A stretch of DNA of 64,000 nt from Candidatus Kapaibacterium sp. (GTDB taxonomy: Bacteria > Bacteroidota > Ignavibacteria > Kapaibacteriales > UBA2268). Below are positions 27,464 to 49,675 of the stretch, piece by piece. A program made the position numbers and the translations under genes. Below the pieces are notes generated by a model. It was not told the DNA's origin. It did not search any database and saw only the letters and a list, made by a program, of their open reading frames with translations. The stretch spans positions 4,896,001-4,960,000 of the forward strand of contig OY762428.1 in NCBI GenBank assembly GCA_963665665.1, given 5' to 3'. The stretch's first letter is position 1, and every line of letters begins with the position of its first letter.

Positions 27464-27570
27464 TAAAATATGAATACATTAGGGGAAGGCTTATACATGT
27501 TAAAACAGCTGGCCTTCCCCAGACTTATTCCCAATCTTTGATTTCACCTGTCCCACGCCGGCGCATGGAT

Positions 27571-27822
27571 TGTCATACTGAGCGAAGCGAAGTATCCATT
27601 CTTTATACATTATCTGCAAAGTAAATGTGGACTTCCTCTGTTGCAAGAGCAGCGAAATCATATAAAAAAGCTCCGTAGGAGCGGAATTTTTGTAGATAAT
27701 ATTTGCATAATCTTCATTCAAAGCTCCGTAGGAGCGACATCTGAAATGTAAATGCCGCCCCGACGGGGCTGTTATTCATCCCGGGATCGATTTACTACAA
27801 AAATGTCGCGGCTACGCCGCTA
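27571..27822. repeat. Cluster of REP/MITE-like palindromes
   Basis: GTCATACTGAGCGAAGCGAAGTATCC; AGCTCCGTAGGAGCG x2; GCCCCGACGGGGCT; GCGGCTACGCCGC. Confidence 0.8.
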
Positions 27823-27873
27823 TCCTTCATTCCGATGAATAGGGGGATGACGGATAGGAATATCTTCCTGGGA

Positions 27874-28083
27874 CAGATTTGCCATTATTTACCACAAAAT
27901 ATCAATCATATATCCCACAATTCTGATTTTTTATATCAAAATAGTGATCCTATTGCTGAGAAAATCAATTCTTTATCTCATAATATTGATTCTTACTTTC
28001 AAAATTGTGAATCAATATCATAAAAATCTGATCATTTGAACTATAATTCCGATTCTTTATTTCAAAATAATAAATACACGGAT
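27874..28083 (+). repeat. Degenerate 21-bp periodic array (about 10 units)
   Basis: CA(A/C/T)AAT recurs at 27895, 27916, 27937, 27979, 28000, 28063; (A/G)AT at +9 in most units. Confidence 0.7.
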
Positions 28084-28662
28084 TATTTGAATGAAGCCTA
28101 ATCCTGTAAATGATTTGATGTGTGCAATTGGTTAGTATCGGATAATCGGGTTAATATTTAGTAAGTGTAATCTATTATATATTTTATTTATCAGAGTATA
28201 TAATCATCATAAATTTATATTTTATCGGTATATTTTATTAAAATTTTAATCTATTTTATGCTTGATATAGTTTATCTAACTAAATTCCTTATTTATATTA
28301 TTGATTAATTTATGTATATGATAAAATAATGAGTTATGCTAATTGTATATTATATTTGTCCTATTATATAATAAAGTGTTATAATTTATTAGGCTAATCT
28401 GTTTTTTACTAAATAAGGATGCTTATTTAATATGAAATGAAATGGAATTAATATTATGAGTTAATTATTTACTAATATGAATATGTTATTTAATATTTTT
28501 GATTGATTATTTATGGTTTTTGGTTAGGGAATTACTAAATTATTTAATATAAATATTAATTGTTATTATTTTAATTGTTGTATAAGTAGATTATTTCTTT
28601 GAACTTATAATTTAATTACTTATATTAATATTAGTAATCATATTATATATCGGGGAGATATA

Positions 28663-29577
28663 ATGTCTGTAATACTAAACAATAATTTCTCGCAGGATAC
28701 TCATGATATCAGGGCTGAAAGGCTTAGGAAAATCCAGGATAATCATGATTTTATTCGTGATGAGCTTCATGCGCCGGAGGAGATTTGTATTTGGGCTGAG
28801 GACTGCTATGATATATTCATGGATAAGATTAGTTCGTCGGCGGTGGACACTGCGCAGTGGCATTCACAGACCTTTTCGGTGCAGAACATGCTTAGGGAGC
28901 TGACGGAATGTTATCAGATTGTGCGGGCGTTGGGTATTCCGATTTACGCGGATGATCAGAAGCATCTGAAAGATTTTGATTTTGGTCTGAGGTTCCCAAA
29001 GTCGCGCCTGGAGATGCTTTCGAGGGCCGAGCTGATTATTGAAGTGCACAACCGGCACGTTCAGGAGGGGCTGCCGAAAACTATTCCGCAGCTGATGATC
29101 GACAGGCTGGCTGCGGCGATTGCCGAAACGGAGCTGGCGATGGAGGAACAGGAGCAGAAAAAGAAGCGCGCGATGCACAGCACTGCGGAGCTGAAGGAGC
29201 TGATGAAGGCCGACGAGTGGCTGCTGACCTTGCTGAAGGGCTGGTGGCGCGGGGTGATGGGCAAGGATTCGGTGCTGATACAGAAAATCGGGATGGTGAA
29301 CCTGAAAAGGCGCGGAAACCCGCACAGGCCCGAGGCTCCGGCGGATTTTGACTATGATGCCGCGCAGGAAGTTTTTTCCTGGCCGGAGGTGGAGGGCGCG
29401 ACAAGCTACGAGATTGTGACGCGGAGCGCAAAAAAGGGTAAAAAATGGCGGAAAGCCTGGCGGGGACGCGTTCTGAGCGCTATGCTGCCGCCACCGGAGA
29501 GTCCGTCCGAGTACGCCGTGCGCGCGCGCAACCATAATGGCTACGGGCTGATAAGCGCTGTGGTGGCGGTGGGATAG
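28663..29577 (+). CDS. Helical protein with C-terminal fibronectin type III-like domain (copy A)
   Basis: GGGGAG SD; no signal peptide; C-terminal PEAPADF...FSWPEVEGATSYEI...EYAVRARNHNGYG..S. Confidence 0.8.
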   Translation: MSVILNNNFSQDTHDIRAERLRKIQDNHDFIRDELHAPEEICIWAEDCYDIFMDKISSSAVDTAQWHSQTFSVQNMLRELTECYQIVRALGIPIYADDQKHLKDFDFGLRFPKSRLEMLSRAELIIEVHNRHVQEGLPKTIPQLMIDRLAAAIAETELAMEEQEQKKKRAMHSTAELKELMKADEWLLTLLKGWWRGVMGKDSVLIQKIGMVNLKRRGNPHRPEAPADFDYDAAQEVFSWPEVEGATSYEIVTRSAKKGKKWRKAWRGRVLSAMLPPPESPSEYAVRARNHNGYGLISAVVAVG

Positions 29578-29738
29578 GCGGAAGGGGAAATATGTGTCGG
29601 TATTTTTAAATAATAACGAAGAAGTTGCACCTGAATATTGTTAGTTCTCAAATGAAAAATAAAAATCCCGTTTTAAAAAAACGGGAAATTAAAAATTGAC
29701 ATCAAATATTGATCTTCAGCCCTGAATGAACTTTGAAA

Positions 29739-30173
29739 TCATACTTTTGCTTCAACCAGTTCATTTATTGAACTTACAATAATTCCTTTATCCACACTGC
29801 CGTTCAGAGCAACAAACACTGTGTCATCGCCTGCTATAGTACCGACAACCCCGGGTAGTTCTTTGGTATCGATACTCACCGCCAGGCTGCTGGCCGAGCC
29901 GGGTTTGGTCCGAATAACATATACAAGTGACGAAAACATTTTTTCATTCAGGCCTACATGCTCATCGGAACTATTGGGAAAATAATATTTATATTTTCCT
30001 GAATTTGTCATTATGCGGGCTGTTTTTAGGTCTTTAAGATCTCTTGAAATGGTTGCCTGGGTTGCTTTAATTCCTAACTCTTTCAATTCCGTATTCAGAT
30101 GTTCCTGATTGTAAATATCTTTCGAAAGAATTAGTTTCCTGATTATTCCCTGTCTTTTTCTTTTGTTTTTCAT
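29739..30173 (-). CDS. argR: Arginine repressor
   Basis: ATQATISRDLKDL HTH; GTIAGDDT arginine-binding motif. Confidence 0.92.
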   Translation of the reverse strand: MKNKRKRQGIIRKLILSKDIYNQEHLNTELKELGIKATQATISRDLKDLKTARIMTNSGKYKYYFPNSSDEHVGLNEKMFSSLVYVIRTKPGSASSLAVSIDTKELPGVVGTIAGDDTVFVALNGSVDKGIIVSSINELVEAKV

Positions 30174-30183
30174 ACTCTCATGA

Positions 30184-30197
30184 TGTATAAACATACA
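30184..30197. promoter_or_regulatory. Putative ARG box (argR autoregulation)
   Basis: TGTATAAACATACA palindrome 10 bp upstream of the argR start, resembling TG.AT....AT.CA. Confidence 0.5.
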
Positions 30198-30553
30198 AAC
30201 TCTCTGCAAAAATATCCAATTATTATTAATTTTCAAAAAAATTTGTTTAATAATTGTAATTCAGTGTTATTGAAATCACGTATACCCTCACCAATAAACT
30301 TTAGAAGCGGATAATGCAGCATTCTGTAGGGTATCTACACTGCGGCTTCTACTCTGCTTGTAACAGAACTTTCAAATTTCATTTCAATTCGCTCATGAAT
30401 TTTGTGTCTCATAAATAAAACATACGATAATGGTTTAAACCTGATATACAGTTAATTTCAGGTAATAATGCAGGAAAATAATCTCTGCCTTTTTTGATTT
30501 GTACCCATTTTACTATTTTTGAAAATGATTAATTGATAATTGTAGAGAATAGA

Positions 30554-31135
30554 ATGAAAAAAGTTGCTGTTTATTGCGCATCCAGTCAGAAAATTGATAA
30601 TCTTTATCTTGAAGAAGCAGCCAGGCTGGGAAAACTGCTTAGTGAAAAGGATTTTGGTATTGTATATGGCGGAGGTAAGGTCGGGCTTATGGGAACAGTT
30701 GCCGATGCTGCAATGAAGGCTGGCGGGCATGTTAGCGGGGTTATTCCGGAATTTATGATAAACCTTGAATTAGCCCATAAATCAATAAGCGAGTTAAACA
30801 TTGTTGAGGATATGCATACCAGGCAAAAAATGATGCTTGAAAAATCTGATTATATTATCGCCTTGCCGGGTGGAAGCGGCACATTCATGGAATTTTTCGA
30901 AGCTGTATCCTGGAAGCGGCTCGGATTGATAGTATCTCCGATAATTCTACTTAATATCAACGGCTATTATGACAATATGATAGCAATGCTGAACAGAGCT
31001 GTTGATGATAAATTTATGGCCGGAGATTACAGCAGACTTTGGAATGTATTTTCATCGGTCAGCGAGGCAGTTGATTTCTTAACAGAATGCCGGGATAATG
31101 CTGGTTGTAAGAAAATCTCGATCTCCGGTTTATAA
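30554..31135 (+). CDS. LOG family phosphoribohydrolase
   Basis: VAVYCASS, VYGGGKVGLMG, ALPGGSGTFMEF. Confidence 0.9.
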   Translation: MKKVAVYCASSQKIDNLYLEEAARLGKLLSEKDFGIVYGGGKVGLMGTVADAAMKAGGHVSGVIPEFMINLELAHKSISELNIVEDMHTRQKMMLEKSDYIIALPGGSGTFMEFFEAVSWKRLGLIVSPIILLNINGYYDNMIAMLNRAVDDKFMAGDYSRLWNVFSSVSEAVDFLTECRDNAGCKKISISGL

Positions 31136-31202
31136 CTGTTTTTAAGATTAATATTATTCTCCACTGCTAAACTTTTTCTATATATTGCCGAATATTGGCA
31201 AT

Positions 31203-32174
31203 ATGGTTATCGCATCCTCAAATATTGGGTTTGAGGCTACTCATTATAGTGCCTCCCGTGTTACAGAGTCTCTGTCCTTCAGGATAGTGAACGATAGTAA
31301 TAGTGATAACCGTGATATTCTGGATATAAAATCCGCCGGATCTTCCCAAATGATTCCCAAAACCGATGATAACGACAATATGCTTTCAGCAGAAATGAGA
31401 GCGATAAAAATGTTGTTCAGAGAAATTTTCGGCGATAAATTTGATATTCATCTGTCTGATTATTCCAAAGCCGAGTCATCTGTCAATTCAATGAATGAAG
31501 AGATCAGAGAAAGAACAGGCGCTGATAACTTCGAGTTATCCAGGGCTGTCAGCGTTTATGAATCAGAAAAGATCAGCCTGAATGCCTCAGGAATAATTAA
31601 AACATCCGACGGTCAGGAAATTGATTTTAAAATTTCCTTCAGTCTCGGCAGGGAATTTTATATGGAAAATGTTCAGCAGATAAGGTCGGCAAGGAAGTCA
31701 GATCCTCTTGTATTAAATCTTGATACTACTGCGGCAGATCTTAGTAGCCAAAAAGTTGCATTTGACATAAACTCGGACGGAACTGATGAAAATATCAGTA
31801 TTCCTTCCAGTGGCAGCGCATTTTTATTTATCGACAAGGATGACGATGGCAGAGCCACGGACGGCTCGGAATTATTCGGCCCGTCGTCAGGCAGCGGATT
31901 CAACGAACTTCGCCTGCATGACATTGACGGCAACAACTGGATTGATGAAAACGATGAAGTATTTAACAGGCTCAAACTTTGGAACGCAGCAACAGGAAGC
32001 ATATCAAACCTCATGGACAGAGGCATAGGAGCTATTTACTTAAACTCGACTAACACCCCGTTTTCATACAAACCTGATTATGAAACGGAAAACGGATTTC
32101 TACGAAGGACCGGCATTTACGTCAGGGAGGACGGATCCGTTTCAACTATCCAGGAATTAGACCTTAGCATTTAA
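31203..32174 (+). CDS. Hypothetical protein with Ca-binding DxDxDG-type repeats
   Basis: DPLVLNLD...FDINSDG...DKDDDG..TDGSELFG...DIDGNNWIDEND. Confidence 0.65.
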   Translation: MVIASSNIGFEATHYSASRVTESLSFRIVNDSNSDNRDILDIKSAGSSQMIPKTDDNDNMLSAEMRAIKMLFREIFGDKFDIHLSDYSKAESSVNSMNEEIRERTGADNFELSRAVSVYESEKISLNASGIIKTSDGQEIDFKISFSLGREFYMENVQQIRSARKSDPLVLNLDTTAADLSSQKVAFDINSDGTDENISIPSSGSAFLFIDKDDDGRATDGSELFGPSSGSGFNELRLHDIDGNNWIDENDEVFNRLKLWNAATGSISNLMDRGIGAIYLNSTNTPFSYKPDYETENGFLRRTGIYVREDGSVSTIQELDLSI

Positions 32175-32253
32175 CACTATTTTTCTTGTATAGATTCGGA
32201 CAAAAAGATAATTTGCAGCAAATTATTTCTAATTATTAAAAAAAAGAAATATC

Positions 32254-32727
32254 ATGAGTGATTTAATTATCAGACAGTTCGAAGCACTATTAGACGGCGA
32301 AAGTGATTTTATAGCCAATGCCGCAAATTGCTCGGCGTTTATAATGGATATGTTCGAAGAGCTAAACTGGGCGGGATTTTATTTTGTAACAGGCGACGAA
32401 CTTCTTCTCGGGCCTTTCTGCGGCAAGCCGGCCTGCGTTAGAATAAAAATCGGCAAAGGCGTTTGCGGCGCTTCAGCTTCACGTAAAGAAACAATAGTAG
32501 TTGACGATGTTCATGAATTTCCCGGACACATAGCCTGCGATGCCGCTTCAAATTCCGAGATTGTTGTGCCGCTTATTCACAAGGGCGAGATTTTCGGAGT
32601 TCTGGATATTGACAGTCCTGTAAAAAACCGGTTTTCAAATAAGGACAAAGAGATTATCGAAGAGATGGCCGGAATCATTGTTAATATCTCGGATATAGAA
32701 AAGCTAACAAAGTATTATAAATTTTGA
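32254..32727 (+). CDS. msrC: Free methionine-R-sulfoxide reductase (GAF domain)
   Basis: LNWAGFY, LGPFCGKPAC, GKGVCG, FPGHIACDAASNSEIVVP, LDIDSP. Confidence 0.9.
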   Translation: MSDLIIRQFEALLDGESDFIANAANCSAFIMDMFEELNWAGFYFVTGDELLLGPFCGKPACVRIKIGKGVCGASASRKETIVVDDVHEFPGHIACDAASNSEIVVPLIHKGEIFGVLDIDSPVKNRFSNKDKEIIEEMAGIIVNISDIEKLTKYYKF

Positions 32728-32918
32728 TTACATGAAATATTTGGAATTTGGATAGTATTTCTTAAATTATAACATGACATGATTTTATTTAAAAATTAAT
32801 TGACCGGTATATACTCGAATCCGACTTATTATTTAAGTAAATATAATTATTTTATTATCTTTACTTAAATATTTTTATTAAATTCGGAAAAATATAAACC
32901 CCTGATCCGAGTGATATT

Positions 32919-34559
32919 ATGAGGTCGATAATTATTATTCTGACGATTATTTTATCCATATTGCGGTTAAATTCGCAGATCGTAATAAATGAAATAATGC
33001 CAGCCCCGGAAGGCGGCGAGCCTGAATGGATAGAGATATTCAACAATTCAGATATAGAGAAAAAAATTGAATCAATTACTCTGTCCGACGCTGCAGTACC
33101 AAAACTGCTGCCTGATTTAGTTCTTCCTTCCGGAGAATATGTTGTTCTGTGCCGTGATACTACTGAATTAATAAAAGTAAGAAACATTCCGGAAACATGT
33201 CAATTAATTGAAACAACATTGCCGCAATTCAACAATACTAATGATATGGCTATCCTAAGGGATGCACAAGGAAAAACAATAGATACCATGTTCTATGATA
33301 TGTCAGATTTCGAGAACGGAAAAAGTATAGAAAGAAAAAATTCTTCAAAGCAGGGTTATTCAAAAGATAACTGGGGAGTAGCAATTGACAAAACAGGGGC
33401 TACTCCGGGCAGGAAAAATAGTATCAGCGCTCCGGATACCTCTCTGACTATCGAAATGTCTGTTGAATATAACAGCCAAATTCCGAAATTCAGGATTGAA
33501 ATAAATAACACAGGGCTTATAAGTATTTCAAATCTGATCCTTGAATTAACAATTGATACAAGCTTTACAGGAACAAACTCACTTTTATTGGTAAAAGATA
33601 TTGTTGATATTGAATCCGGGGATAATACAATCAAAGAATATATTTTCGACCTGGCCGATCTAATCGGCGGACTTTATAAATGCCATGCTGCGCTAAAGTC
33701 TTCAGTATCTGCTTTTTGCAGCGCCACAGCCGATGTATATTTCCCAATTAAGGAACATTCCTTAAAAATTAATGAAATAATGTATGATACCGATCGTGCC
33801 GAGTTTTTTGAACTAATCAATATTTCATCATCTAAAATCAACCTGAGAAATTGCAGTTTTGCAGATGAATCAAAATCCGAAAATCCTGTAAATATTGATA
33901 CAAACCTTATCCTGTATCCGAAGAGTTACGGCCTGATTTGCTGGGATCAGGCAGTATTTGATATTATCCCGGAATTTTCAGGATCATCCTCGGTATATTG
34001 TTCAGGTGAAGCAGTTACACTTAATAATTCAGGCGATGAAATAATTATCAGAGATTATTTTGATACCATTATTGATTCAGTTGAGTATTCGGATAAATGG
34101 CATACCGGCGACTTTATTGATACCAAAAATATAAGCCTGGAAAGGGTCAATACCGATTCAGACGCCAATATCCCGGAATCATGGGCAAGCTGTGCTGATG
34201 CCGCCGGCCATACCGCTTTAAGAAAAAATAGCTGCGCTTATAATCCTTCTGCTAAATTTAGTTTGGAAATATCTCCAAATCCGTTTTCCGCCAATATTGA
34301 CGGAAGATGTGAAATCAAATATTCAACAAATTCAAAGGCATGTAATCTTTCGGTCAAGATTTTTAACAGGGCCGGGCAGTGTATGGCAAACCTGAAAAGA
34401 GGTGAATTTTCATCCGGAACCGGCATCCTGGAATGGAACGGGAAAAACGACCAGGGTTATCTTTTGGAGCCTGATGCCTATGTATTATTCTTTGAAATTA
34501 CACCGGAAAATTCAGAAGAAACAAAATTATTCAAGAAAATAATCGTTCTTGCAGAATAA
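32919..34559 (+). CDS. Lamin-tail domain protein with FlgD/T9SS-type C-terminus
   Basis: Two VINEIM...EWIEI/EFFEL domains, TPGRKNS, SPNPFS...WNGKNDQG. Confidence 0.8.
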   Translation: MRSIIIILTIILSILRLNSQIVINEIMPAPEGGEPEWIEIFNNSDIEKKIESITLSDAAVPKLLPDLVLPSGEYVVLCRDTTELIKVRNIPETCQLIETTLPQFNNTNDMAILRDAQGKTIDTMFYDMSDFENGKSIERKNSSKQGYSKDNWGVAIDKTGATPGRKNSISAPDTSLTIEMSVEYNSQIPKFRIEINNTGLISISNLILELTIDTSFTGTNSLLLVKDIVDIESGDNTIKEYIFDLADLIGGLYKCHAALKSSVSAFCSATADVYFPIKEHSLKINEIMYDTDRAEFFELINISSSKINLRNCSFADESKSENPVNIDTNLILYPKSYGLICWDQAVFDIIPEFSGSSSVYCSGEAVTLNNSGDEIIIRDYFDTIIDSVEYSDKWHTGDFIDTKNISLERVNTDSDANIPESWASCADAAGHTALRKNSCAYNPSAKFSLEISPNPFSANIDGRCEIKYSTNSKACNLSVKIFNRAGQCMANLKRGEFSSGTGILEWNGKNDQGYLLEPDAYVLFFEITPENSEETKLFKKIIVLAE

Positions 34560-34738
34560 ACACATTTATGAAATAACAATTAACATCTATTAATACTAAT
34601 GAATATTCAATATCATATTATATATAGTAGGCCTGTTCACAACCTAATCCAAACGGCTTCTGATGCGAATTTCAGGTATATCGAAATTATTTTTTACTTT
34701 ATATAATATAGCTATTTATAGAGTCAGTGCAGCCTTAT

Positions 34739-34753
34739 TGGCACAGAAATTGT
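34739..34753 (+). promoter_or_regulatory. Putative sigma54 -24/-12 promoter
   Basis: TGGCAC-AGAAA-TTGT with correct spacing, about 55 bp upstream of the kinase gene. Confidence 0.5.
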
Positions 34754-34807
34754 TAATTATCGGGCAGTGAAAATAAATAAATTTCAGATTGAAACAGGAA
34801 AAACTTG

Positions 34808-35758
34808 ATGGCTGAAAATAATGATTACACTTTCATAGGTATTGATGGCGGCGGAACACATACGCGCGGAATATTGAAAAGAGGCGGGGAAGTTATATCA
34901 ACATCACAAGCAGGAACAACAAGAATCGGAGCAGTCGGGGTGGGCGAATCATGCGAACGAGTGCTCAACATGATAGATGATCTTTGCAGAAAAGCAGAAA
35001 TTGAATCTAATGAAATTGACGCGACAGTTGTAGGCCTTGCCGGCGTCTGGCTTGAAGAAGAGAAAAAAAGATCACAGCACCTTATCCGTACACTTGCTCG
35101 GGGACAGGATATAACATTATCCGATATAATGGTAACCAGTGATGCTGAAATCGCTATCGAGGGCGCTTTTGAAGGTGGCCCGGGGCTGATTATGATAGTT
35201 GGCACCGGATCAATAGCACTCGGTAAAGTTGGAAGAAAGAAAAATCTTGTTCGTTGCGGCGGATGGGGTATTGAACTTGATGACGAAGGCAGTGGTGCCT
35301 GGATAGGTAAGGAAGGCCTGACAGCCATTGTTCGATCACTTGACGGCAGGGGCAAAAAAACTATCCTGACTGACAGATTTGCAGAGATGTACCAGAATAT
35401 TGATATAAAACAACCAAGAACAATTGTAAAAGCTTATGCAGAACGTTCATTTGAATACCATTTGCTTACTCCTACTGTAATGAAATGCGCTGTTGAAGGA
35501 GACGCGGTTTGCCTTGAGATAATTGACAGGGCATCTTTCCACCTGATGGAACTTCTTGAAGCAATCAAACCAAACTTCGATATCCAGAAAATCCCGGTGG
35601 CTATGATGGGCGGCATAATTGATGCCAATACCCTTCTTGCTGATAAACTGAGGGAAAGGATTAACAATCATAAAAAATTCAAGCTTATTGCTCCCAAGGG
35701 TACTCCGCTCGACGGGGCAATTTCAATTGCTCAGCAAAGGTTAGAGGCAAGCCTTTAA
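34808..35758 (+). CDS. BadF/BadG/BcrA/BcrD family sugar kinase (GlcNAc/MurNAc kinase-like)
   Basis: GIDGGGTHT, IVGTGS, CGGWGIELDDEGSGAWIG. Confidence 0.88.
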   Translation: MAENNDYTFIGIDGGGTHTRGILKRGGEVISTSQAGTTRIGAVGVGESCERVLNMIDDLCRKAEIESNEIDATVVGLAGVWLEEEKKRSQHLIRTLARGQDITLSDIMVTSDAEIAIEGAFEGGPGLIMIVGTGSIALGKVGRKKNLVRCGGWGIELDDEGSGAWIGKEGLTAIVRSLDGRGKKTILTDRFAEMYQNIDIKQPRTIVKAYAERSFEYHLLTPTVMKCAVEGDAVCLEIIDRASFHLMELLEAIKPNFDIQKIPVAMMGGIIDANTLLADKLRERINNHKKFKLIAPKGTPLDGAISIAQQRLEASL

Positions 35759-35981
35759 TAGCAGATAAAAGATTTATTCGGGGCTTTATCATAATGATAA
35801 GGCCTTTTTTGTTATATAATTAGTAGATTCCGGATATAACAAAGAATAGTTTGAGGCATTATTTACTGAACAGATTCGTAATAAGAAGGAATGATATGGA
35901 TTTTTTTCACTTTTTAGAGTGAATTTGCTTATAATTTCTTAATTTTGAATCTATTGATAACAGATTGGACACGGCAATAAG

Positions 35982-36356: not shown

Positions 36357-36434
36357 TATGCCAAACCCAATTGAAGTATTGATAAATCGTCTTAGTTTTG
36401 GATTTGTAAGAATTAGATAAAACGGAATAAAAAT

Positions 36435-38616: not shown

Positions 38617-38618
38617 TT

Positions 38619-39452: not shown

Positions 39453-39459
39453 AATTAAG

Positions 39460-40766: not shown

Positions 40767-40767
40767 T

Positions 40768-41167: not shown

Positions 41168-41188
41168 CTCCTGAATAGTGTGAATGAT

Positions 41189-41216
41189 AAAGGCCTCCGT
41201 TCGCGGGGGCTTTTTT
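41189..41216. terminator. Bidirectional terminator
   Basis: AAGGCCTCCG...CGGGGGCTTTTTT. Confidence 0.6.
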
Positions 41217-41229
41217 ATTTTCGACAGCA

Positions 41230-43140
41230 TTATTGCCCTATAAGCAGTTCAAAGAATAAGTAATCATTTGGAATGATCAGTTCTCCCGGAATATTCTTAA
41301 TACCGGATTTGAGTTCAATATCCGGCGAAATGTCAGTTGCTGATTTAAGTATATCAGCAATTTCACCCGCGTCGGATATATCATCATCAGCACGGTAGTT
41401 AAGTATAATATTCCCCGAAACATGAGGTATTATATTGGACTTAAAATAGTCTCCAAGATCGGCTCTCTTATAATCATTTGGAAGCAAAAGCAGGTATCTG
41501 TGGTATTTTTTCCGGTTAATAATGAGAGGTTTTATGCTGAAAGCGCTGTTTTTAATCAGAGTCAAACTGAAATCACCAATAATATTTCCCGAAGATTCAA
41601 GCTGAAAAACAAGTTCATCCAGATCGGTCAGGTAAGAACCAAAATTCGAAATATCAATCGACATCTCTTCAGGCAACAGGCCATTACCCTGCTTCAATAT
41701 AAGCATATCAATATCATTTTTTAGTAAAAGGCGCCATTGGCCATTTATTGCTTTTTCTCCGGTATTGATAAACAAATCAAGAACAGGCGGTACAGGTTCA
41801 ACTAATTCAACACCGCTGGCAAAAGGGGAGGTCAGTTCAGTCGAGTTTGATTTTATCTGGCCATCAGCCAGCCTTTCATCAGCAACAAGCCTGTGCTTTT
41901 CTATTTTATTTTGAACACAGAGATAATCCCATAGTTGAGGAAAAATCTTATTTCCGCAAATCAGAATGGAATTTTTATTTTCCTTCATCCTGGAACTTAA
42001 AGTTTTCAATATCCTTGAATTCAACTGTTCCGCAAAATAGTTCCTATTCATATCAGGATCAATAAGGCGGTCGATATAAGGAGCGATAACCTGGTATTCA
42101 ACTGTCATATCATACTTTAATCGCAGGCTGGTAATAAGGGATTCGATTAAAATTTCGGGCTTTTCCGAATTGTTTTCAGCCCCGTTTTCATCTTGAATTC
42201 TGATTGAATATATGTCAAGTCCGCCAAGCCCACCTGGCCGGTCACTTGCGAACAGCAAAGTATTATTTATAATCGAAGGATCAGATTCATCAAATTCAGT
42301 ATTTACAGCCGTTAAAGGTTCAGGGCGCGACCAGCTGCCATTCACACGTAAGGAATAGTATAGATCATATCCTCCTCTGCCTTCGTACCCGTTCGTGGCA
42401 AATATCAATGTATCATCCCCTTTTAGGAAAGGGGTTATTTCATTACCTGCCGAATTCAGTTCATCAAGGCTCATCAAATTGCCCCATGAGCCATTATTAA
42501 GCCTGGAACACATCCATAAGTCGGTATCGGAACTTTCATTATATCCCATATTCGACGAAAAGATCATTATCCTGCCACCCGGACTTACTGCCGGGTGAGC
42601 ACAAAAGGCATTGCTTATCAGGCTGTCAACAGGTACGGGCTTTGTCCACTGCATTTTTTTATAAAAAGTTTTAAATATATTCATTACAGGCCTGCCCTCA
42701 TCCATCCTGTATGTTGACAGATATGCCTCGTTAGCTGAATAAAATGTAACATATGACTGGTTATTCCCGGAGATATTAATCGGAGAAGCAGATTTGGAAA
42801 TATTCCGAAAGATAAGTGAATCTCCGGCATTTGCCGAATAAAAGTATGAACGCCCGTCTCTTTCGGAATTGAAATATAATTTATTCTCAAAGTTGTTCCA
42901 GACAGCAGCAAAATCATCTGCATCTGAGTTTAATTCCTCGCAATTCCTCAAAGACTGCTCATAAAAATTGATTCCGTTGGCAAATACAGAAAAGTGTATT
43001 GATGTCATAAATATAAAGATCAGTAATATTATTCCCTTCCGAAGGTTTGCCACCTTTGGTAAACTTAACAAATGGATATTAAATATTTTTTCCGTGTAAT
43101 TGGAAATACTATCAAATAGTTTCATAATTGAAATTTTCAT
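41230..43140 (-). CDS. Exported PD40 (WD40-like) beta-propeller protein (start uncertain)
   Basis: LYFNSERDG, GRGGYDLY, LFASDRPGGLGGLDIY repeats. Confidence 0.75.
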   Translation of the reverse strand: MKISIMKLFDSISNYTEKIFNIHLLSLPKVANLRKGIILLIFIFMTSIHFSVFANGINFYEQSLRNCEELNSDADDFAAVWNNFENKLYFNSERDGRSYFYSANAGDSLIFRNISKSASPINISGNNQSYVTFYSANEAYLSTYRMDEGRPVMNIFKTFYKKMQWTKPVPVDSLISNAFCAHPAVSPGGRIMIFSSNMGYNESSDTDLWMCSRLNNGSWGNLMSLDELNSAGNEITPFLKGDDTLIFATNGYEGRGGYDLYYSLRVNGSWSRPEPLTAVNTEFDESDPSIINNTLLFASDRPGGLGGLDIYSIRIQDENGAENNSEKPEILIESLITSLRLKYDMTVEYQVIAPYIDRLIDPDMNRNYFAEQLNSRILKTLSSRMKENKNSILICGNKIFPQLWDYLCVQNKIEKHRLVADERLADGQIKSNSTELTSPFASGVELVEPVPPVLDLFINTGEKAINGQWRLLLKNDIDMLILKQGNGLLPEEMSIDISNFGSYLTDLDELVFQLESSGNIIGDFSLTLIKNSAFSIKPLIINRKKYHRYLLLLPNDYKRADLGDYFKSNIIPHVSGNIILNYRADDDISDAGEIADILKSATDISPDIELKSGIKNIPGELIIPNDYLFFELLIGQ

Positions 43141-43180
43141 AATTCCTGACTTATGTTTTCATCAAATTAAAAATTATATT

Positions 43181-43876
43181 CTACTCGCCGAGCAGATTCT
43201 GAACATCTTTATTTTTTCCGAAAAGCACCATCACATCATCCTTCTGAATAACTGTATCAGGCTCCGGCACGCCAATAATATTTATCCCAAGAGTATTAGC
43301 AAATTTCAGCAATGCTTTGTTACCGGATTGTCTTTTGATTGTTACCAGGTTCAACTTGTAATCTTTTCTTAGGTTTATCTCAATAAGATTTTTACCGATA
43401 AAGTATTCCGGCGCTGTAATTTCATAAATTCCAAAACCGTTTCCGATATCAAAGAATTCAATAAGCCCCGGCATCATAAGCCTGTTTGCGAGGTGTGCAG
43501 CCGAATCTGCTTCAGGAACAAGGAGCTCTTCCACACCCATTTGCTTCAGAATTTTCTCATGAATCGGGCTGATAACCCGGTTCATAATTCTTTTTACACC
43601 AATTTCCTGAAGCATCGCAGTTGTCAGCATTGATGATTCGAAGCCCTCGCCAATAGCAACTACTACAATATCCATATCCTGCAATCCTAAGCTTTTAAGC
43701 CCCGTGGAATCGGTGGAATCCAGGCATACAGCATAAGAGATTTTATCGCTTATCCTGTCGATTTTATCCTGATGGTTGTCCACTGCCATAACTTCAGCTC
43801 CAATCTCGGAAAGTCTGAGTGCCAGGTTATACCCAAAATGGCCAAGCCCGATAATACATATTTTTTTTGGTTTCAT
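43181..43876 (-). CDS. ktrA: KtrA/TrkA potassium uptake regulatory subunit
   Basis: IIGLGHFG RCK_N plus RCK_C. Confidence 0.9.
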   Translation of the reverse strand: MKPKKICIIGLGHFGYNLALRLSEIGAEVMAVDNHQDKIDRISDKISYAVCLDSTDSTGLKSLGLQDMDIVVVAIGEGFESSMLTTAMLQEIGVKRIMNRVISPIHEKILKQMGVEELLVPEADSAAHLANRLMMPGLIEFFDIGNGFGIYEITAPEYFIGKNLIEINLRKDYKLNLVTIKRQSGNKALLKFANTLGINIIGVPEPDTVIQKDDVMVLFGKNKDVQNLLGE

Positions 43877-43890
43877 AATAATTCAATAAA

Positions 43891-45666
43891 TCAGCCAACA
43901 AGAATATTCTCTCTCGGAAGGGTATATCTCGGGGATTTCCCGGGGCGGTAAAATGACATGAAAAATGTCAGCACGCCAATCCTTCCAATAAACATCATAA
44001 ATATAATCAATATTTTACCGCCGTCGCCAAGAAATCCTGTTATATTTCTGGACAGCCCGACTGTACCAACAGCCGATATAACCTCGAAAACGAGATCAAC
44101 TGGGTTTTTCGAAGGCTCGATAAGTATCAAAATAAATACCCCTACAAATAATACAATGATCGATGCCGAAATAACCATAAAGGCCCGCCTGATACTGTCC
44201 GGGTTGATTTCCCGGCGAAATAAATTCAAACGTCCCCTTCCTTTTATCAGGTTCAGCATATTAAGAAAACTAATGGAAATAGTTGTCGTTTTTATTCCGC
44301 CGCCAGTCGATCCGGGCGAAGCTCCTATCCACATCAGCAGCAGCATGATTATGAGCGCCGGCGCCGGGATCATGTCCACTGGTACGGTATTGAAACCGGC
44401 AGTCCTGCTTGTTACTGACAGGAACAGGCTGTGAAACAGTTTATCACCAGTGCCCATACCAGCATCAGGAATACCCGAAATATAAATAAGTAATGCGCCC
44501 CCAAATGTAAATACGGCTGAACTTACAAGCACAAGTTTTGTAAGCGGCCGCAGACGGTTGCTAAACTTTTCAGCAAGTGAAAAGAATACGAAACGATTCC
44601 CGTATCGGAACATATTACTTAAAGGAACAAAACCAAGCCCGCCAAGGGTTATCAGCAGCATAATTATTACAAGGAAAGGATAATTGCCGAGAACCAGGCC
44701 GTCCATCAATCCGTCTGAATAAATTGAAAATCCCGCATTGCAAAAAGCAGATACGGAATGGAATACAGACGAATACAGATATTCTGGATTCAAACTGCTA
44801 AGATTTCCGTTAAGGCATACATAAAGCGATGCGGCTCCCAATGCTTCCAGGATAAATGTAAATACGGCAATCTTCAGCAGAAGCCCCCTTACCTCGGAAA
44901 TATTATCCTCGCTAAGTAAGTCTTTCATAAGTACCCTGACACGAAAACTCATTCCACCACTCAGAAAAACAGCGAAGAAAGTTGTAAGGGTCATTATTCC
45001 GAGCCCTCCAACCTGAATTAGTGTCAGTATTACAAATTTTCCGAAAAAAGTAAATGTTGTAGCGGTATCGGTAACGATAAGGCCGGTAACACATACAGCA
45101 CTTGTTGACGTAAACAGTGCATCGAGAAAACCAAAATCTGCGCTGCTTACAGTTGCCCGGGGCATCAGCAGAACAAGAGTACCGCCAAGGATTATTATAA
45201 GGAAACTTATTGACAGAATAGCGCCGGGGTGCAGGTTTATTTTGGATATCAGGTAATTATACCTTAGCAGTTTGGTAACAAACGCCAGGAAAAGAATAAA
45301 GCTTACAACGGCTAAATACAGTAGGGAAAGCTGCTTAATACTCAGGTTTGGAAAGAGAGTGGAACTGATGTTATAAATTATATCGCCAATCACGATATTT
45401 GCAATCAGAATAACCGAGAGCAGGGTTTCAAGTTTCCTTTCCTTCACGTGGTCTTTAACTTTGTCCGACAGCATTATTCTGACAATTTCCTGCAGAACAT
45501 AAATTACGACAATAATATCTATGGCAACGCGCGAATGATCGACGAAACTTTCCGGCAGGTAAAACCCTGCGTTAGCAATGATAAGCGCAAGCGAGACAAA
45601 GCCAATAAAAGTCAGGAACCAGTCCAGCCTTTTTTTTATCAACTTTTTTTTCTCGGGAACAAGCAC
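43891..45666 (-). CDS. ktrB: KtrB/TrkH potassium uptake membrane subunit
   Basis: SAVCVTGL, SAFCNAGFS, SRTAGFN, PGSTGGGIK, SAVGTVGLS. Confidence 0.92.
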   Translation of the reverse strand: MLVPEKKKLIKKRLDWFLTFIGFVSLALIIANAGFYLPESFVDHSRVAIDIIVVIYVLQEIVRIMLSDKVKDHVKERKLETLLSVILIANIVIGDIIYNISSTLFPNLSIKQLSLLYLAVVSFILFLAFVTKLLRYNYLISKINLHPGAILSISFLIIILGGTLVLLMPRATVSSADFGFLDALFTSTSAVCVTGLIVTDTATTFTFFGKFVILTLIQVGGLGIMTLTTFFAVFLSGGMSFRVRVLMKDLLSEDNISEVRGLLLKIAVFTFILEALGAASLYVCLNGNLSSLNPEYLYSSVFHSVSAFCNAGFSIYSDGLMDGLVLGNYPFLVIIMLLITLGGLGFVPLSNMFRYGNRFVFFSLAEKFSNRLRPLTKLVLVSSAVFTFGGALLIYISGIPDAGMGTGDKLFHSLFLSVTSRTAGFNTVPVDMIPAPALIIMLLLMWIGASPGSTGGGIKTTTISISFLNMLNLIKGRGRLNLFRREINPDSIRRAFMVISASIIVLFVGVFILILIEPSKNPVDLVFEVISAVGTVGLSRNITGFLGDGGKILIIFMMFIGRIGVLTFFMSFYRPGKSPRYTLPRENILVG

Positions 45667-45834
45667 AAAAGCTCCAAAGCATTGTGAAATATATATTCAG
45701 GCAAATTATAAAAAGAGAAGTATAAATACAAATTGGATGTTTGGGCTGCATCAGGAAAGATCACACCTATTCATCTTTACTCAGATGGCCAACACCTTTA
45801 GGCGATGTCCCATTATTCTGAATTTTTACTATTT

Positions 45835-46080
45835 GTAATTCTGAACGCAGCGAAGAATCCAGTATTCATGCAAGCTATGGATCCTTTGATTCTCTCAGGA
45901 TGACATCCCCCAACTTCTTCGCAAAATTCAATAGCCACGTGCTCTATCTCGTGGATAAGGGAGGCTAAGAAAAAGAAACCACCCCTGTATTCCCCTCTAC
46001 TTTAGGAGGGGATAAGAAGTTAAATAACATAGAATTAACTCCCCCTCCTTTCGAAGGAGGGGGCCGGGGGGAGGTAGGAA
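45835..46080. repeat. Cluster of REP/MITE-like palindromes
   Basis: GTAATTCTGAACGCAGCGAAGAATCC...CAGGATGAC; AATAGCCACGTGCTCTATCTCGTGGAT; CCCCTCCTTTCGAAGGAGGGG. Confidence 0.75.
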
Positions 46081-46091
46081 GGGTCTATGGT

Positions 46092-46931
46092 AATGCACCG
46101 ATGGTCGACACTATTGAACCAATGTTTTGCTTTATTGCCGCCTTGTTTTGCTTCAAAGACCTCCCCTTCGGGGAGGGTTTGGGAGGGGTCAGAAGAAATG
46201 CACCGATGTTTGATGATATTTCCGCCTTGTTCGACACTATTGCAGCAATGTTTTGCTTTATTGCTGCCTTGGTCCAAATCGATGCACCGATGGTTGAAGA
46301 TAATGAATTCTTGGTCGACACTATTGCACCGATGTTTGGAGTCATTGCACCGATGTTCTAAGCTATTGCACCGATGTTTGGAGTCATTGCTGCCTTGTTC
46401 CAAATCGATGCACCGATGTTTGATGATAATGAACTCTTGTTTGAAGGCATTGAACTCTTGTTCGGAGGCAAAGAACATGTTCAGTAAGGTCAAACAAGCG
46501 TGGGATGAGGCCAAACAAGCGTGGGATGAGGCTAAACAAGCGTGGGATGAGGCCAAACAAGTGTGGGATAATGTCAAACAAGCGTGGGATAATGTCAAAC
46601 AAGCGTGGGATAATGTCAAACAAGCGTGGGATGAAGTCAAACAAGCGTGGGATGAGGCCAAACAAGCGTGGGATGAAGTCAAACAAGCGTGGGATGAGGC
46701 CAAACAAGCGTGAGATGAAGTCAAACAAGCGTGGGATGAGGCCAAATTTCACTACAATAAGGCCAAACAGTAGTTCAATAACTCCGGCCAAGGCAGTTTA
46801 AAGCCCTGCAATCCAAGCAATTAGCCCAAACATCAGGATTTTGATTAAAAACAGCATTGAATTAAGGGAATTATCCGGTTCATTGAAACCACAGGATGGG
46901 GAATTAAGGGCGGTGCTTGGTTCATTGGGGT
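46092..46931. repeat. Composite 21-bp tandem array, about 40 units in one phase
   Basis: Degenerate ATTGCACCGATGTTTGGAGTC-type units 46092-46490; 12 conserved CAAACAAGCGTGGGATGAGGC units 46491-46742; degenerate tail with 42-bp repeats to about 46930. Confidence 0.92.
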
Positions 46932-46971
46932 GGAAGAACGGGGGGTAAGGGCAGGAGAAGGAGGTATTATG

Positions 46972-47200
46972 TTGTCATTCCCCGACACGTCACCGAAAAA
47001 TCGGTGCAGGCAGGGGCAGGCTTCCGGAGCTTGCGACTGAAGAATCCATCTTCTTTAGCCAGATAATGTATAGGAATGGATACTTCGCTCCGCTCAGTAT
47101 GACATCCGCCCAGAGCATCGCAAAATTCAATAGCCAGGTGCTTTAGCTCGTGGATAAAGGAAGCTAAGAAAAAGAAACCACCCCGCCCTTCGGGTATCCT
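46972..47200. repeat. Cluster of REP/MITE-like palindromes
   Basis: GAAGAATCC...GGATACTTCGCTCCGCTCAGTATGAC; AATAGCCAGGTGCTTTAGCTCGTGGAT...AAGAAACCACCCC. Confidence 0.75.
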
Positions 47201-47205
47201 TCGAG

Positions 47206-49675
47206 CTTCCGCCTATCCCACCGCCACCACAGCGCTTATCAGCCCGTAACCATTATGGTTGCGCGCGCGCACGGCGTACTCGGACGGACTCTCCGGTGGT
47301 GGCAGCATAGCGCTCAGATCGCGGCCCCGCCAGGCTTTCCGCCATTTTTTACCCTTTTTTGCGCTCCGCGTCACAATCTCGTAACTCGTCGCGCCCTCCA
47401 CCTCCGGCCATGAAAAAATTTCCTGCGTGGCATCATAGTCAAAATCCGCCGGAGCCTCCGGCCTGTGCGGGTTTCCGCGCCTTTTCAGGTTCACCATCCC
47501 GATTTTCTGTATCAGCACCGAATCCTTGCCCATCACCCCGCGCCACCAGCCCTTCAGCAAGGTCAGCAGCCACTCGTCGGCCTTCATCAGCTCCTTCAGC
47601 TCCGCAGTACTGTGCATCGCGCGCTTCTTTTTCTGCTCCTGTTCCTCCAGCGCCAGCTCCGTATCGGCAATCGCCGCAGCCAGCCTGTCTATCATCAGCT
47701 GCGGAATAGTTTTCGGCAGCCCCTCCTGAACGTGCCGGTTGTGCACTTCAATAATCAGCTCGGCCCTCGAAAGCATCTCCAGGCGCGACTTTGGGAACCT
47801 CAGCCCAAAATCAAAATCCTTCAGATGCTTCTGATCATCCGCGTAAATCGGAATACCCAACGCCCGCACAATCTGATAACATTCCGTCAGCTCCCTAAGC
47901 ATGTTCTGCACCGAAAAGGTCTGTGAATGCCACTGCGCAGTGTCCACCGCCGACGAACTAATCTTATTCATGAATATATCATAACAGTCCTCAGCCCAAA
48001 TACAGATTTCCTCCGGCGCATGAAGCTCGTCACGAATAAAATCATGATTATCCTGGATTTTTCTAAGCCTTTCAGCCCTTATATCATGAGTATCCTGCGA
48101 GAAATTATTGTTTAGTATTACAGACATTATATCTCCCCGATATATAATATGATTACTAATATTAATATAAGTAATTAAATTATAAATTCAAAGAAATAAT
48201 CTACTTATACAACAAATAAAATAATAACAATTAATATTTATCTAAAATAATTTAGTAATTCTCATGTTAAAAACCATAAATAATCAATCAGAAATATTAA
48301 ATAGTGTATCTATATTGGTAAATAATTAATTCATAATATCACTTCAAATTCATTTCATATTAAATAAGCATCCTGATTTAGTAAAAAACAGATTAGCCTA
48401 ATAAATTATAATACTTTATTATATAATTGGAAAAATAATATATACAATTAGTATAACTTATTATTTTATCATATACATAAATTAATCAATAATATATATA
48501 AGGAATTTAGTTAGATAAACTATATCAAGCATAAAATAGATTATATATTTAATAAATTATACCAATAAAATATGAAATTATGATGATTATATATTCTGAT
48601 AAATGAAATATATAATAGATTACACTTACTAAATATTAATCTGATTATCCGATACTAACCAATTGCACACACCAAATCATTTACAGGATTAGGCTTCATT
48701 CAAATAATCCGGATATTAATTATTTTGAAATAAAGAATCAGAATTATAGTACAAATATTCAGACTTTCCCGATATTGATTCACAATATTGAAAGTAAGAA
48801 TCAAAATACTAAGATAAAGAATTGATATTTTCAGCAATCAGATCACTATTTTGATATAAATTATTGGAATTGTGGGGTATATGATTGATATTTTGTGGTA
48901 AATAATGACAAATCCGCCGCAGGAGGACATTCTTATCCCTCATCCCCCTGTTTATCGGAATGAAGGATAGCGGCGTAGCCGCGACATTTTTGTAGTAAAT
49001 CGATCCCGGGATGAATAACAGCCCCGTCGGGGCGGCATTTACATTTCAGATGTCGCTCCTACGGAGCTTTTTTATATTATTCCGATGCTCTTGCGACTGA
49101 AGAATCCATCTTAATTTGCCAGATTATATATGAAGAATGGATACTTCGCTCCGCTCAGTATGACATTCCATGCAGAGCATCGCAAAATTCAATAGCCACG
49201 TGCTCTATCTCGTGGATAAATGTGCAAGGTGCGAAGGCAAAGAAAAAGAATCCACCCCGTCTCGCTGCGCTCGCCACCCCTCGAGAGGGGAATTTTTCGG
49301 AATCCACCCCAGCCTGCTATGCCGCCACCCCCTGCCTGTCCCGATATATCTGGAATAAATCGGGGACGGTTGGGAAAATTTTATTGGTATGAAGGATAGC
49401 GGCGTAGCCGCGACATTTTTGTAGTAAATCGATCCCGAAAAGAACAACAGCCCCGTCGGGGCGGCATTTACATTTCAGATGTCGCTCCTACGGAGCTTCG
49501 AATGAAGATTATGCAAATATTTTCTACAAAAATTCCGCTCCTACGGAGCTTTTTTATATGATTTCGCTGCTCTTGCAACAGAGGAAGTCCACATTTACTT
49601 TGCAGATAATGTATAAAGAATGGATACTTCGCTTCGCTCAGTATGACAATCCATGCGCCAGCGGGGGACAGGTGA
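47206..49675 (-). repeat. Copy B of the duplicated cassette (429 bp longer than copy A)
   Basis: Reverse complement of 27544-29584; an ~110-bp module is present twice, at 48960 and 49389. Confidence 0.95.
47213..48127 (-). CDS. Helical protein with C-terminal FN3-like domain (copy B)
   Basis: 298/304 aa identical to 28663-29577. Confidence 0.8.
   Translation of the reverse strand: MSVILNNNFSQDTHDIRAERLRKIQDNHDFIRDELHAPEEICIWAEDCYDIFMNKISSSAVDTAQWHSQTFSVQNMLRELTECYQIVRALGIPIYADDQKHLKDFDFGLRFPKSRLEMLSRAELIIEVHNRHVQEGLPKTIPQLMIDRLAAAIADTELALEEQEQKKKRAMHSTAELKELMKADEWLLTLLKGWWRGVMGKDSVLIQKIGMVNLKRRGNPHRPEAPADFDYDATQEIFSWPEVEGATSYEIVTRSAKKGKKWRKAWRGRDLSAMLPPPESPSEYAVRARNHNGYGLISAVVAVG

Follow-up and report, generated by a model that had tools for sequence, protein, structure and literature searches.

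The subject of this work is a DNA cassette of about 2 kb that occurs twice, in inverted orientation, within a 64,000-nt stretch of the genome of Candidatus Kapaibacterium sp. (NCBI GenBank assembly GCA_963665665.1, contig OY762428.1, positions 4,896,001 to 4,960,000 of the forward strand; hereafter the window). Each copy begins with GC-rich hairpin repeats, continues with a non-coding AT-rich leader and ends with a gene for a 304-aa protein. Most probably the cassette is a self-contained transcription unit, specific to this lineage, whose amplification has given six dispersed copies. The window is part of a one-contig genome of 5,458,198 bases, from which the copy counts given below were taken.

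Such a unit would be composed of three layers: a head of hairpins of the REP/REPIN type, which would depend, as non-autonomous partners, on an IS200-like (RAYT-type) transposase; an AT-rich, non-coding leader of ~780 nt with a 21-bp period, apparently related to ~30 AT-rich modules of the genome and ending in a highly conserved promoter-like and ribosome-binding block; and a GC-rich gene whose predicted product joins a long-helix N-terminal domain (N-domain) to an FN3 domain. The cassette would have spread by duplication at the DNA level, at or beside clusters of hairpin repeats, through recombination or mobilization in trans, and the copies may afterwards have exchanged patches by gene conversion. 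The leader would act as a promoter or regulatory region, possibly as a phased binding platform, while intact copies would be kept for the function or the dosage of the protein.

Six dispersed copies in one genome

The first-pass annotation, made from the window, had described a duplicated cassette and proposed that it is a dispersed multicopy module whose non-coding 5′ region spreads together with the gene. Both window copies are real, but the genome holds six copies rather than two, three of them intact, as well as two distant paralogues; the 5′ region is present in all six. The copies are:

Copy A, window: intact
Copy B, window: intact
Copy C, 3.45 Mb: full length, 93% identical
Copy D, 0.86 Mb: residues ~176-294 lost in frame, giving a 179-aa N-domain protein
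Copy E, 0.16 Mb: 1.44-kb IS3-family insertion at codon 5
Copy F, 4.63 Mb: IS3-family insertion immediately before the ATG, separating the leader from the gene
Two paralogues, 2.12 and 1.35 Mb: ~40% identical (named P1 and P2 below)

The inserts in copies E and F represent one IS3-family element (rve, HTH_21); they share 99.8% identity and are oriented oppositely with respect to the cassette.

A simple segmental duplication with two copies, or an artefact of assembly, would account for the two window copies and for nothing beyond them. Both are excluded for practical purposes by the six copies and two paralogues of the one-contig genome, by contig depth and by a second strain. Four sequencing runs were compared, all as contigs (Logan). 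The summed contig depth of the cassette-specific part was 206-310 in run X1, against 49-51 for unique flanks, and 117-180 in run X3, against 24-35; these two runs come from one sample, and the cassette thus stands at ~4-6 times (about fivefold) the depth of its flanks. In X4, a ~1% diverged strain from another study, one contig ends at window position 27573 and the next starts at 29554, i.e. at the ends of the cassette. Furthermore, the 90% protein cluster has 11 members, of which six belong to this genome and five lie on five other contigs (22-90 kb), and the copies differ from one another by 3-14% depending on the part compared, which argues against both readings.

The genes around the six copies are unrelated housekeeping genes, among them those for ArgR, TrkH, IspH with cytidylate kinase, NADH dehydrogenase subunits, an ABC transporter and thiolase. 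A Pfam survey of the flanks took in 69 open reading frames (ORFs) lying up to 5 kb from the six copies and from the two paralogues. Apart from the IS3 element in E and F, neither the cassette nor the 5 kb on either side of each copy was found to contain a transposase or recombinase. The cassette is accordingly transposase-free, as had been claimed, in a local sense only, for the genome carries elsewhere an IS200-like gene cognate to its hairpins (see below).

Layout of the copies in the window

Copy A lies on the forward strand and copy B on the reverse strand, with the following features (evidence in brackets):

27544-27839 (+): left part of copy A, REP-type hairpin modules (repeat comparison)
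27668-27822 (+): REPIN-like doublet of copy A, two inverted hairpin units (49 genome matches)
27840-28110 (+): degenerate AT-rich 21-bp-period array of copy A, with ATC..N8-10..GAT-like units (autocorrelation, repeat finder)
28111-28662 (+): AT-rich leader of copy A, 16-18% GC, 21-bp periodicity (composition, autocorrelation)
28174-28405 (+): leader core common to other AT-rich modules of the genome (BLAST against shuffles)
28599-28626 (+): promoter-like TTGAAC-16-TATATT (consensus match only)
28652-28657 (+): GGGGAG, 6 nt before the ATG (sequence)
28663-29577 (+): gene of copy A, helical N-domain (~1-215) and C-terminal FN3 domain (~220-304) (ORF, fold model)
28135-29184 (no strand): 21-bp A/T lattice crossing the start codon (periodicity tests)
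29578-29584 (+): last 7 nt common to the six copies after the stop codon (copy alignment)
47206-48127 (-): gene of copy B (47213-48127) and 7 nt after the stop codon (repeat match)
48128-48950 (-): AT-rich leader and degenerate 21-bp array of copy B (repeat match)
48951-49675 (-): hairpin-repeat modules of copy B, including an insert of ~309 nt (repeat match)
46199-46746 (no strand): two adjoining overt 21-bp tandem arrays just past the 3′ end of copy B, members of genome-wide array families and outside the cassette (32 genome matches)

The inverted duplicate reported in the first-pass annotation was recovered as two pairs of arms, 27720-29584 versus 47206-49070 (95% identity over 1865 nt) and 27544-27839 versus 49380-49675 (96% identity, 296 nt). 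They are set apart in copy B by an extra ~309 nt (49071-49379), which consist of other hairpin-repeat modules and split two partial copies of the left part. On the right, homology ends 7 nt past the TAG stop codon in all six copies, as had been noted for the window pair. Both genes encode 304 aa (copy A, 28663-29577 on the + strand; copy B, 47213-48127 on the - strand), and their products differ at the same number of residues as originally counted, 6 of 304 (D54N, E155D, M160L, A234T, V237I and V270D). GC content is 53-60% in the gene and ~20% in the leader, for a genome mean of 38.6%. The housekeeping character of the 17.6 kb separating A and B was likewise borne out: this interval holds genes for ArgR, a LOG-type protein, a GAF protein, a BadF-type ATPase, a rhomboid protein, IspG (GcpE), PAP2, thioredoxin, TrkA and TrkH.

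Selection and exchange between copies

Purifying selection on the protein, which had been deduced from a short alignment, is supported by the rates computed over the genes. Between A and B, the method of Nei and Gojobori gave 17.0 synonymous and 6.0 non-synonymous differences; in the first ~180 nt alignment reproduced the six synonymous changes out of seven, with one non-synonymous. The ratio of non-synonymous to synonymous divergence (dN/dS) ranged from 0.09 to 0.25 overall. Pairs drawn from A, B, C and F gave 0.09-0.13, and pairs including E, the copy disrupted by an insertion sequence (IS), gave 0.17-0.25. Synonymous divergence (dS) was 0.085-0.138 in these comparisons and 0.09-0.12 for pairs of A, B and C. 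When A, B and C are compared, divergence varies between the parts of the cassette:

Hairpin head: 0.6%
Array: 14%, the least conserved part
AT-rich leader: 6.9%
100 nt around the ATG (28599-28698): 0.7%
Gene: 3.1%

The severed leader of copy F has diverged by 12-14.5%, whereas the leaders of the other copies differ by 5.7-8.5%, and the gene of copy F is no more diverged than those of other copies.

The right flanks of the copies are of two unrelated types. Together with a leader indel they group A and E against B, C, D and F, a grouping that the gene distances do not follow. This patchwork of similarities indicates that the copies do recombine, and it bears on the earlier suggestion that the inverted A/B pair could flip the 17.6-kb housekeeping segment, in which case it would work as a recombination switch. 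Inverted arms of 1.9 kb with 95% identity, 17.6 kb apart, would suffice for homologous recombination. The remaining four copies, however, are scattered singly, so that the pairing of A and B looks incidental, and no invertase gene was found nearby among the flanking ORFs searched with Pfam. Judged from these sequence features, such a switch would be quite improbable.

The hairpin head and its possible mobilization

The palindromes reported in the first-pass annotation are real hairpins, GC-rich in sequence (GCTCCgtaGGAGC, GCCCCgacGGGGC and GCGGCtacGCCGC), but they are more than palindromes, since they form elements of the REP/REPIN type that have a cognate IS200-like gene in the genome. An inverted hairpin pair, 27669-27700 and 27790-27821, has 32-nt arms that are 75% complementary. 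The 155-nt unit enclosing it (27668-27822) gave 49 BLAST matches in the genome, of which 38 span at least 100 nt and 22 at least 140 nt, and a search with the whole cassette gave 56 matches, mostly to query positions 1-281. A complete REPIN-like doublet stands at the left of all six copies. Two Y1_Tnp (IS200-like) matches were found in the genome; only one is a short stand-alone gene (genome 1821805-1822270, 153 aa, Pfam E 6.5e-21), and three types of cassette hairpin lie on both sides of this gene at 1.82 Mb. Pieces of the head hairpins also occur in 15 of the 40 related genomes searched. By its sequence, therefore, the cassette head classes with the REP/REPIN-type modules, with the Y1_Tnp gene as its putative RAYT-type partner elsewhere in the genome.

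REP and REPIN elements have been described together with RAYT genes, to which the movement of short REPINs is attributed (Bertels & Rainey 2011, PMC3116915; PMC3337134). In its left part the cassette resembles these systems in its short GC-rich hairpins, in their arrangement as an inverted doublet, in its ~40-50 genome copies and in sharing hairpin units with the flanks of the Y1_Tnp gene. It differs from REPINs, which measure ~100 nt and have no cargo, in that the doublet here stands ahead of a leader and a gene in a unit of 1.8 kb; movement of this unit by the Y1 transposase is conjectural.

Transposition by an IS200/IS605-type enzyme proceeds through single-stranded DNA and leaves no target-site duplication. 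The cassette might be a non-autonomous mobile element, with leader and gene as cargo, moved in trans through its end hairpins by the IS200-like/RAYT-type transposase. Along with the doublet at the left of each copy and the cognate gene flanked by the same hairpin units, this proposal would explain the sharp right end, 7 nt past the stop codon in six of six copies, the insertion sites between unrelated housekeeping genes and the missing target-site duplications; a stem of ~12 bp also closes the 3′ end of the gene. That stem, however, is no better than in shuffled sequences (z -0.6 to -0.9) and does not resemble the left hairpins, and no matching hairpin was found at the right end of the cassette, the hairpins being on the left only. 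The sequence left of the doublet differs between copies, which therefore do not share a left terminus, and an empty site was not found. Moreover, a cargo of 1.8 kb was not met in the abstracts on RAYTs and short REPINs (PMC3116915; PMC3337134). We regard mobilization of this kind as possible but unlikely. Integration of a circular form, which would leave a chain of direct repeats on both sides, was also considered and rejected as it was seen in one copy of six: a 170-nt direct repeat (82%) flanks both sides of copy B only.

The AT-rich leader and 21-bp-period DNA of the genome

The 21-bp array noted in the cassette is real. Autocorrelation over 27860-28110 gave lags 63, 42 and 21 as the three best, the lag-21 value being reached in 0 of 500 shuffles, and the repeat finder gave spacings of 42, 21 and 63 in the array of copy A; Tandem Repeats Finder (TRF) reported no 21-bp array in copy A and found the cassette array in copy D only.

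No known RNA family was detected in the leader, the sole Rfam match of the window being a cobalamin riboswitch outside the cassette. A leader profile used with nhmmer retrieved the six copies, one marginal match and nothing else, so that the leader is linked to other AT-rich modules by BLAST, checked against shuffled sequences: the leader core (28174-28405) matched these modules with 62-78 bits, whereas 60 shuffled leaders reached 48 bits at most. The genome contains 102 segments below 20% GC, ~30 of which measure 590-840 nt. Sixteen AT-rich modules form one family, 85-94% identical, each between two overt arrays, and seven more are ~70% alike to one another and to the cassette leader. Lags of 21, 42, 63 and 84 came out on top in the autocorrelation of eight of eight AT-rich modules and did not in three unrelated AT-rich segments.

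Period-21 DNA is abundant in this genome at large. Of 833 TRF rows, 288 have a period of 21, including 203 arrays with at least three copies that total ~45 kb, an upper figure owing to the overlap of TRF rows. The arrays belong to several unrelated unit families, often in fixed pairs; in the window they are found, for example, at 7588-7927, 46199-46746 and 63333-63538. A search with the arrays of 46199-46746 gave 32 matches in the same genome and none in 40 relatives; short-read assemblies often lose repeats. The overt arrays have heptad-like translations, but the frames break and start codons are lacking in several of the 16 copies inspected, for which reason the arrays were treated as non-coding. 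Our literature search returned nothing relevant on tandem repeats of Kapabacteria or on intergenic 21-bp tandem repeats of bacterial genomes.

The thought that homologues of the gene might generally be accompanied by such arrays and by an AT-rich leader was not borne out. Homologues elsewhere lack them: of the 13 homologue loci whose available upstream sequence reaches 400 nt or more, not one has a 600-nt upstream region below 28% GC, the value for the cassette being 18%. Arrays and AT-rich leader thus belong to this genome and not to the gene family.

Several further loci display the same kinds of DNA. The 16-copy composite repeat (genome 1026004-1026670 and 15 other places) consists of a 21-bp array, an AT-rich core and a second 21-bp array; the core measures ~520 nt with 10-20% GC and is itself 21-periodic, and hairpin repeats lie at the borders of the composite. 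Upstream of paralogue P2 the composite repeat occurs without the core and the two array types abut directly, which makes the core look like an insertion. Paralogue P1 has an overt 21-bp array 170-450 nt upstream and, in the same region (locus L042, ~5000-5450), a short ORF resembling an IS21-type helix-turn-helix fragment, bracketed by C7A7-like runs. In the window, a 2128-aa ORF (57180-63563, - strand) bears a 21/42-bp tandem repeat in its 5′ part (63333-63538); behind the array pseudo-ORFs, it has the strongest 21-bp periodicity of any real-looking ORF in the genome.

A 21-bp lattice across the start codon

The period of the leader does not stop at the gene. Over 28135-29184, the A/T Fourier amplitude at period 21.0 was 3.77, the best of 260 periods and above all of 2000 shuffles (maximum 2.88). 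Because this joint amplitude exceeds the values of the leader alone (2.07) and of the coding sequence alone (3.38), the two are in phase. The phase is steady over 28240-29184; the array region (27820-28134) is out of phase. In the part coding for the N-domain the periodicity has a z of 5.1, the observed value being matched by none of 1000 codon shuffles. It is absent from the FN3 part (z 0.5), from the two paralogues and five homologues (z 0.3-1.3) and from six neighbouring genes.

The signal lies chiefly at the third codon position (z 5.2); it is weaker at the first (z 2.7) and absent from the second (z 1.2), and a hydrophobic heptad pattern is not significant (z 0.7). At every seventh position of codons 1-140, a limit picked after the data had been seen, 18 of 20 codons end in T, and at the remaining positions 33 of 120 do (p 1.4e-7); over codons 1-215, T ends 18 of 30 seventh codons and 38 of 185 others (p 2.1e-5). 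The bias is upheld in four-fold codons (8 of 10 end in T, against 6 of 39; p 2.3e-4). Two-fold pyrimidine-ending codons have T:C counts of 8:0 at phase 7 and 7:0 at phase 1, compared with 12:12 at the other phases. Of the 19 third positions that vary within codons 1-140, none lies at phase 7, a marginal depletion (~p 0.05), and paralogue P1 has a weak seventh-codon T bias (14 of 30, p 0.014). When 2975 ORFs of at least 200 aa were ranked over the genome, the four full-length cassette genes took ranks 4-7, behind three pseudo-ORFs lying over arrays, the next real gene having p ~1e-4. The lattice is therefore written at synonymous sites and is unique among the real genes of this genome.

Two candidate origins may be put forward, namely a selected signal for phased binding, or templated conversions between adjacent 21-bp units that leak silently into the coding sequence. 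In the first case, the leader and the 5′ part of the gene would be bound every 21 bp, i.e. every two helical turns, by a DNA- or RNA-binding protein, perhaps as a filament that silences or activates the cassette, and the lattice at silent sites would be its footprint. This would agree with a leader and coding sequence in phase at exactly 21.0, with a signal carried by the third codon position and not by the second, with the persistence of the T bias in four-fold codons, with the lack of signal in paralogues and homologues, with the rank of the cassette genes below array pseudo-ORFs only and with the invariance of phase-7 third positions. Yet no candidate for the binding protein was identified, the array region is out of phase, the depletion at phase 7 is marginal and the stronger p-value depends on the codon-140 limit. 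The overt arrays of the genome, moreover, have several unrelated unit sequences, so that one protein cannot read all of them. Finally, the mutational origin would give a like pattern without any function. On this evidence a phased binding platform seems a minority possibility, and still more doubtful is its extension to the whole genome, in which the >200 arrays, the ~30 AT-rich modules and the leader would form an undescribed system of 21-bp-period DNA read by an architectural protein, with the lattice over ~170 codons as part of it.

If phased binding did occur, a protein code and a binding code would share one DNA, in register with the promoter region, and the arrangement would resemble a bacterial counterpart of positioned chromatin on a multicopy gene. 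A selected lattice would render the 21-bp-period arrays of the genome experimentally approachable through one defined locus, whereas a merely mutational one would be a useful case of repeat homogenization leaking into a coding sequence.

The protein and its family

Neither Pfam nor NCBIfam gave a match to the 304-aa protein at E<=1. A HMMER search of 1.84 billion representatives retrieved 164 proteins at E<=0.001, of which 84 remained at a cut-off of 1e-10 and 19 at 1e-30, with alignments covering mostly residues 1-300; some members carry one or two further FN3 domains. A word-index search found six proteins, one of them the window's own cluster. The source names encountered for the family all read ‘hypothetical protein’. 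Residues N7, D12 and R20 are invariant in 60 relatives.

The AlphaFold model, computed from an 8-sequence alignment, has a pLDDT of 85.6 and consists of two helices of ~55 residues among shorter ones, followed by a beta sandwich. The FN3-like C-terminal fold proposed in the first-pass annotation is supported by both structural comparisons, with a VIA-align Z of 12.0 (root-mean-square deviation 1.9, 83 aligned, residues 221-304) and 15 Foldseek matches at E<=0.001, of which the top ones are all FN3 domains. The family profile in addition matched titin at 4e-29, and Pfam fn3 was found in 14 of 60 relatives, though not in this protein at E<=1. Sequence searches of PDB and Pfam gave no match to the N-domain, also when a 12-sequence profile was used; folded alone without an alignment, the domain gave a pLDDT of 39. 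The protein is thus made of a long-helix N-domain of no known family and an FN3 domain, and its family is unnamed. A likeness of the helical part to LemA was discarded, its Z of 10.4 lying within the chance range for helical bundles; the top BFVD row, an uncharacterised 262-aa phage protein, is a lead only (TM 0.23-0.27). Inspection by eye agreed with the earlier statement that there is no signal peptide. We lean towards a non-enzymatic structural or adaptor protein.

A loose kinship with the multicopy helical HagB/DUF6261-like genes had also been proposed. It is not supported, the protein having no Pfam match at E<=1 and none of 60 relatives a match to DUF6261. DUF6261 (PF19775) likewise had no match in the genome itself or in 40 relatives, a search in which the control genomes also gave none; the one trace was a language-model score of 0.84 to a cluster with 32% DUF6261 members. 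The genes hagB and hagC of Porphyromonas gingivalis are reportedly near-identical helical-protein genes at separate loci. In this the cassette genes, which are near-identical helical-protein genes at separate loci in a genome of the Bacteroidota group, do resemble them; unlike DUF6261, the cassette family carries one or more FN3 domains and has no match to the DUF6261 profile.

The family appears widespread but patchy, is found now and then beside genes of mobile elements and shows no fixed surroundings. The search for related loci with the 8-sequence alignment gave seven loci in metagenome contigs and five in genome contigs, and five of 40 related genomes had a family match, one of them through FN3 only. 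No relative was found among 91 candidate stretches of viral contigs. PADLOC gave nothing for the protein and two single weak matches among 60 relatives. PHROG matches to ‘major tail’ or ‘tail fibre’ occurred in up to 25 of 60 relatives and are most likely due to FN3. No gene neighbourhood was conserved among 11 homologue loci; some family members adjoin T4CP-like, DnaB-like, restriction-modification or DUF1353 genes. In nearly all loci the family gene is richer in GC than its surroundings, here 0.54 versus 0.386 and elsewhere, for instance, 0.52 versus 0.38 (L027) and 0.43 versus 0.35 (L045).

Neighbours of this sort, and a layout that resembles iterons beside an AT-rich region, might suggest an iteron-type origin of replication or the remnant of a plasmid or phage replicon, in which the array and the AT-rich unwinding region would be served by an initiator gene. 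This idea is hard to reconcile with a helical-bundle and FN3 protein that matches no replication family, with an array that is the least conserved part of the cassette, with six copies amid housekeeping genes, with the absence of relatives from the viral stretches and with homologues devoid of array and leader. We consider it very improbable.

Comparison with known systems

The original description of mobile insertion cassettes reportedly concerned Bacillus cereus. Mobile insertion cassettes resemble miniature inverted-repeat transposable elements and hold passenger genes but no transposase (PMC5444012). The element described here is like them as a dispersed, transposase-free unit of ~2 kb with one passenger gene and its own upstream region, and unlike them in that neither terminal inverted repeats nor target-site duplications were found and the left boundary is variable. 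Compared with integron gene cassettes, which are typically promoterless, it has a long upstream region of its own, and no integrase family was found by Pfam among the 69 flanking ORFs of the eight loci. Tandem ARG boxes and plasmid iterons are spaced at ~21-22 bp. The cassette shares with such phased operator or iteron arrays a repeat of two helical turns, whose units are partly palindromic (ATC..GAT) and adjoin AT-rich DNA in front of a gene; it departs from them in that the period runs over ~1 kb and into silent sites of the coding sequence, in that the array is the least conserved part and in that the genome holds >200 further 21-bp-period arrays of unrelated units.

Several points weigh against the amplification of a self-contained transcription unit as we propose it. 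Neither terminal inverted repeats nor target-site duplications were found at the ends of the six copies; a long direct repeat lies on both sides of one copy of six (B), with short matches of chance size at D and E. The search for an empty site found none, and site A seems to be occupied in the second strain as well, since its contig breaks join the ends of the repeat to the flanks of that site. The lattice is not predicted by a plain account of an amplified gene. The gene has a GC content of 0.67 at third codon positions in a genome of 38.6% GC, and this high value, which is common to both old paralogues, agrees neither with a recent acquisition nor with the usual codon choice of native genes. 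A leader divergence below dS could reflect a low mutability of AT-rich DNA rather than constraint, and the diverged leader of copy F could mean that this copy is older and that its gene was homogenized later. Transcription, the promoter and the role of the leader are inferred from sequence, and the whole-model fold searches were swamped by FN3 rows.

Should amplification nevertheless be the right explanation, the cassette would offer a clean case of a whole transcription unit multiplied to six copies and held under purifying selection without a transposase of its own, and it would bear on how REP-type clusters and tyrosine transposases may help genes to multiply. It also points to an unstudied protein family, widespread but rare per genome, with a conserved N-terminus, a long-helix domain and FN3.

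Other observations

Directly beyond copy B, at window positions 49875-50073 (+), lies the cobalamin riboswitch mentioned above (Rfam RF00174, 97 bits), which precedes two genes, one encoding a T9SS sorting domain and the other a TonB-dependent receptor. Near paralogue P2, three identical 132-aa DUF559 (endonuclease-like) ORFs stand in tandem, ~840 nt apart (locus L043, 8482-10563, - strand). Beside copy C, a 133-aa ORF (locus L038, 2775-3173, + strand) matches the eukaryote-type ubiquitin family (PF00240, E 6e-30) and sits between the genes for cysteinyl-tRNA synthetase and a WD40-type beta-propeller protein.

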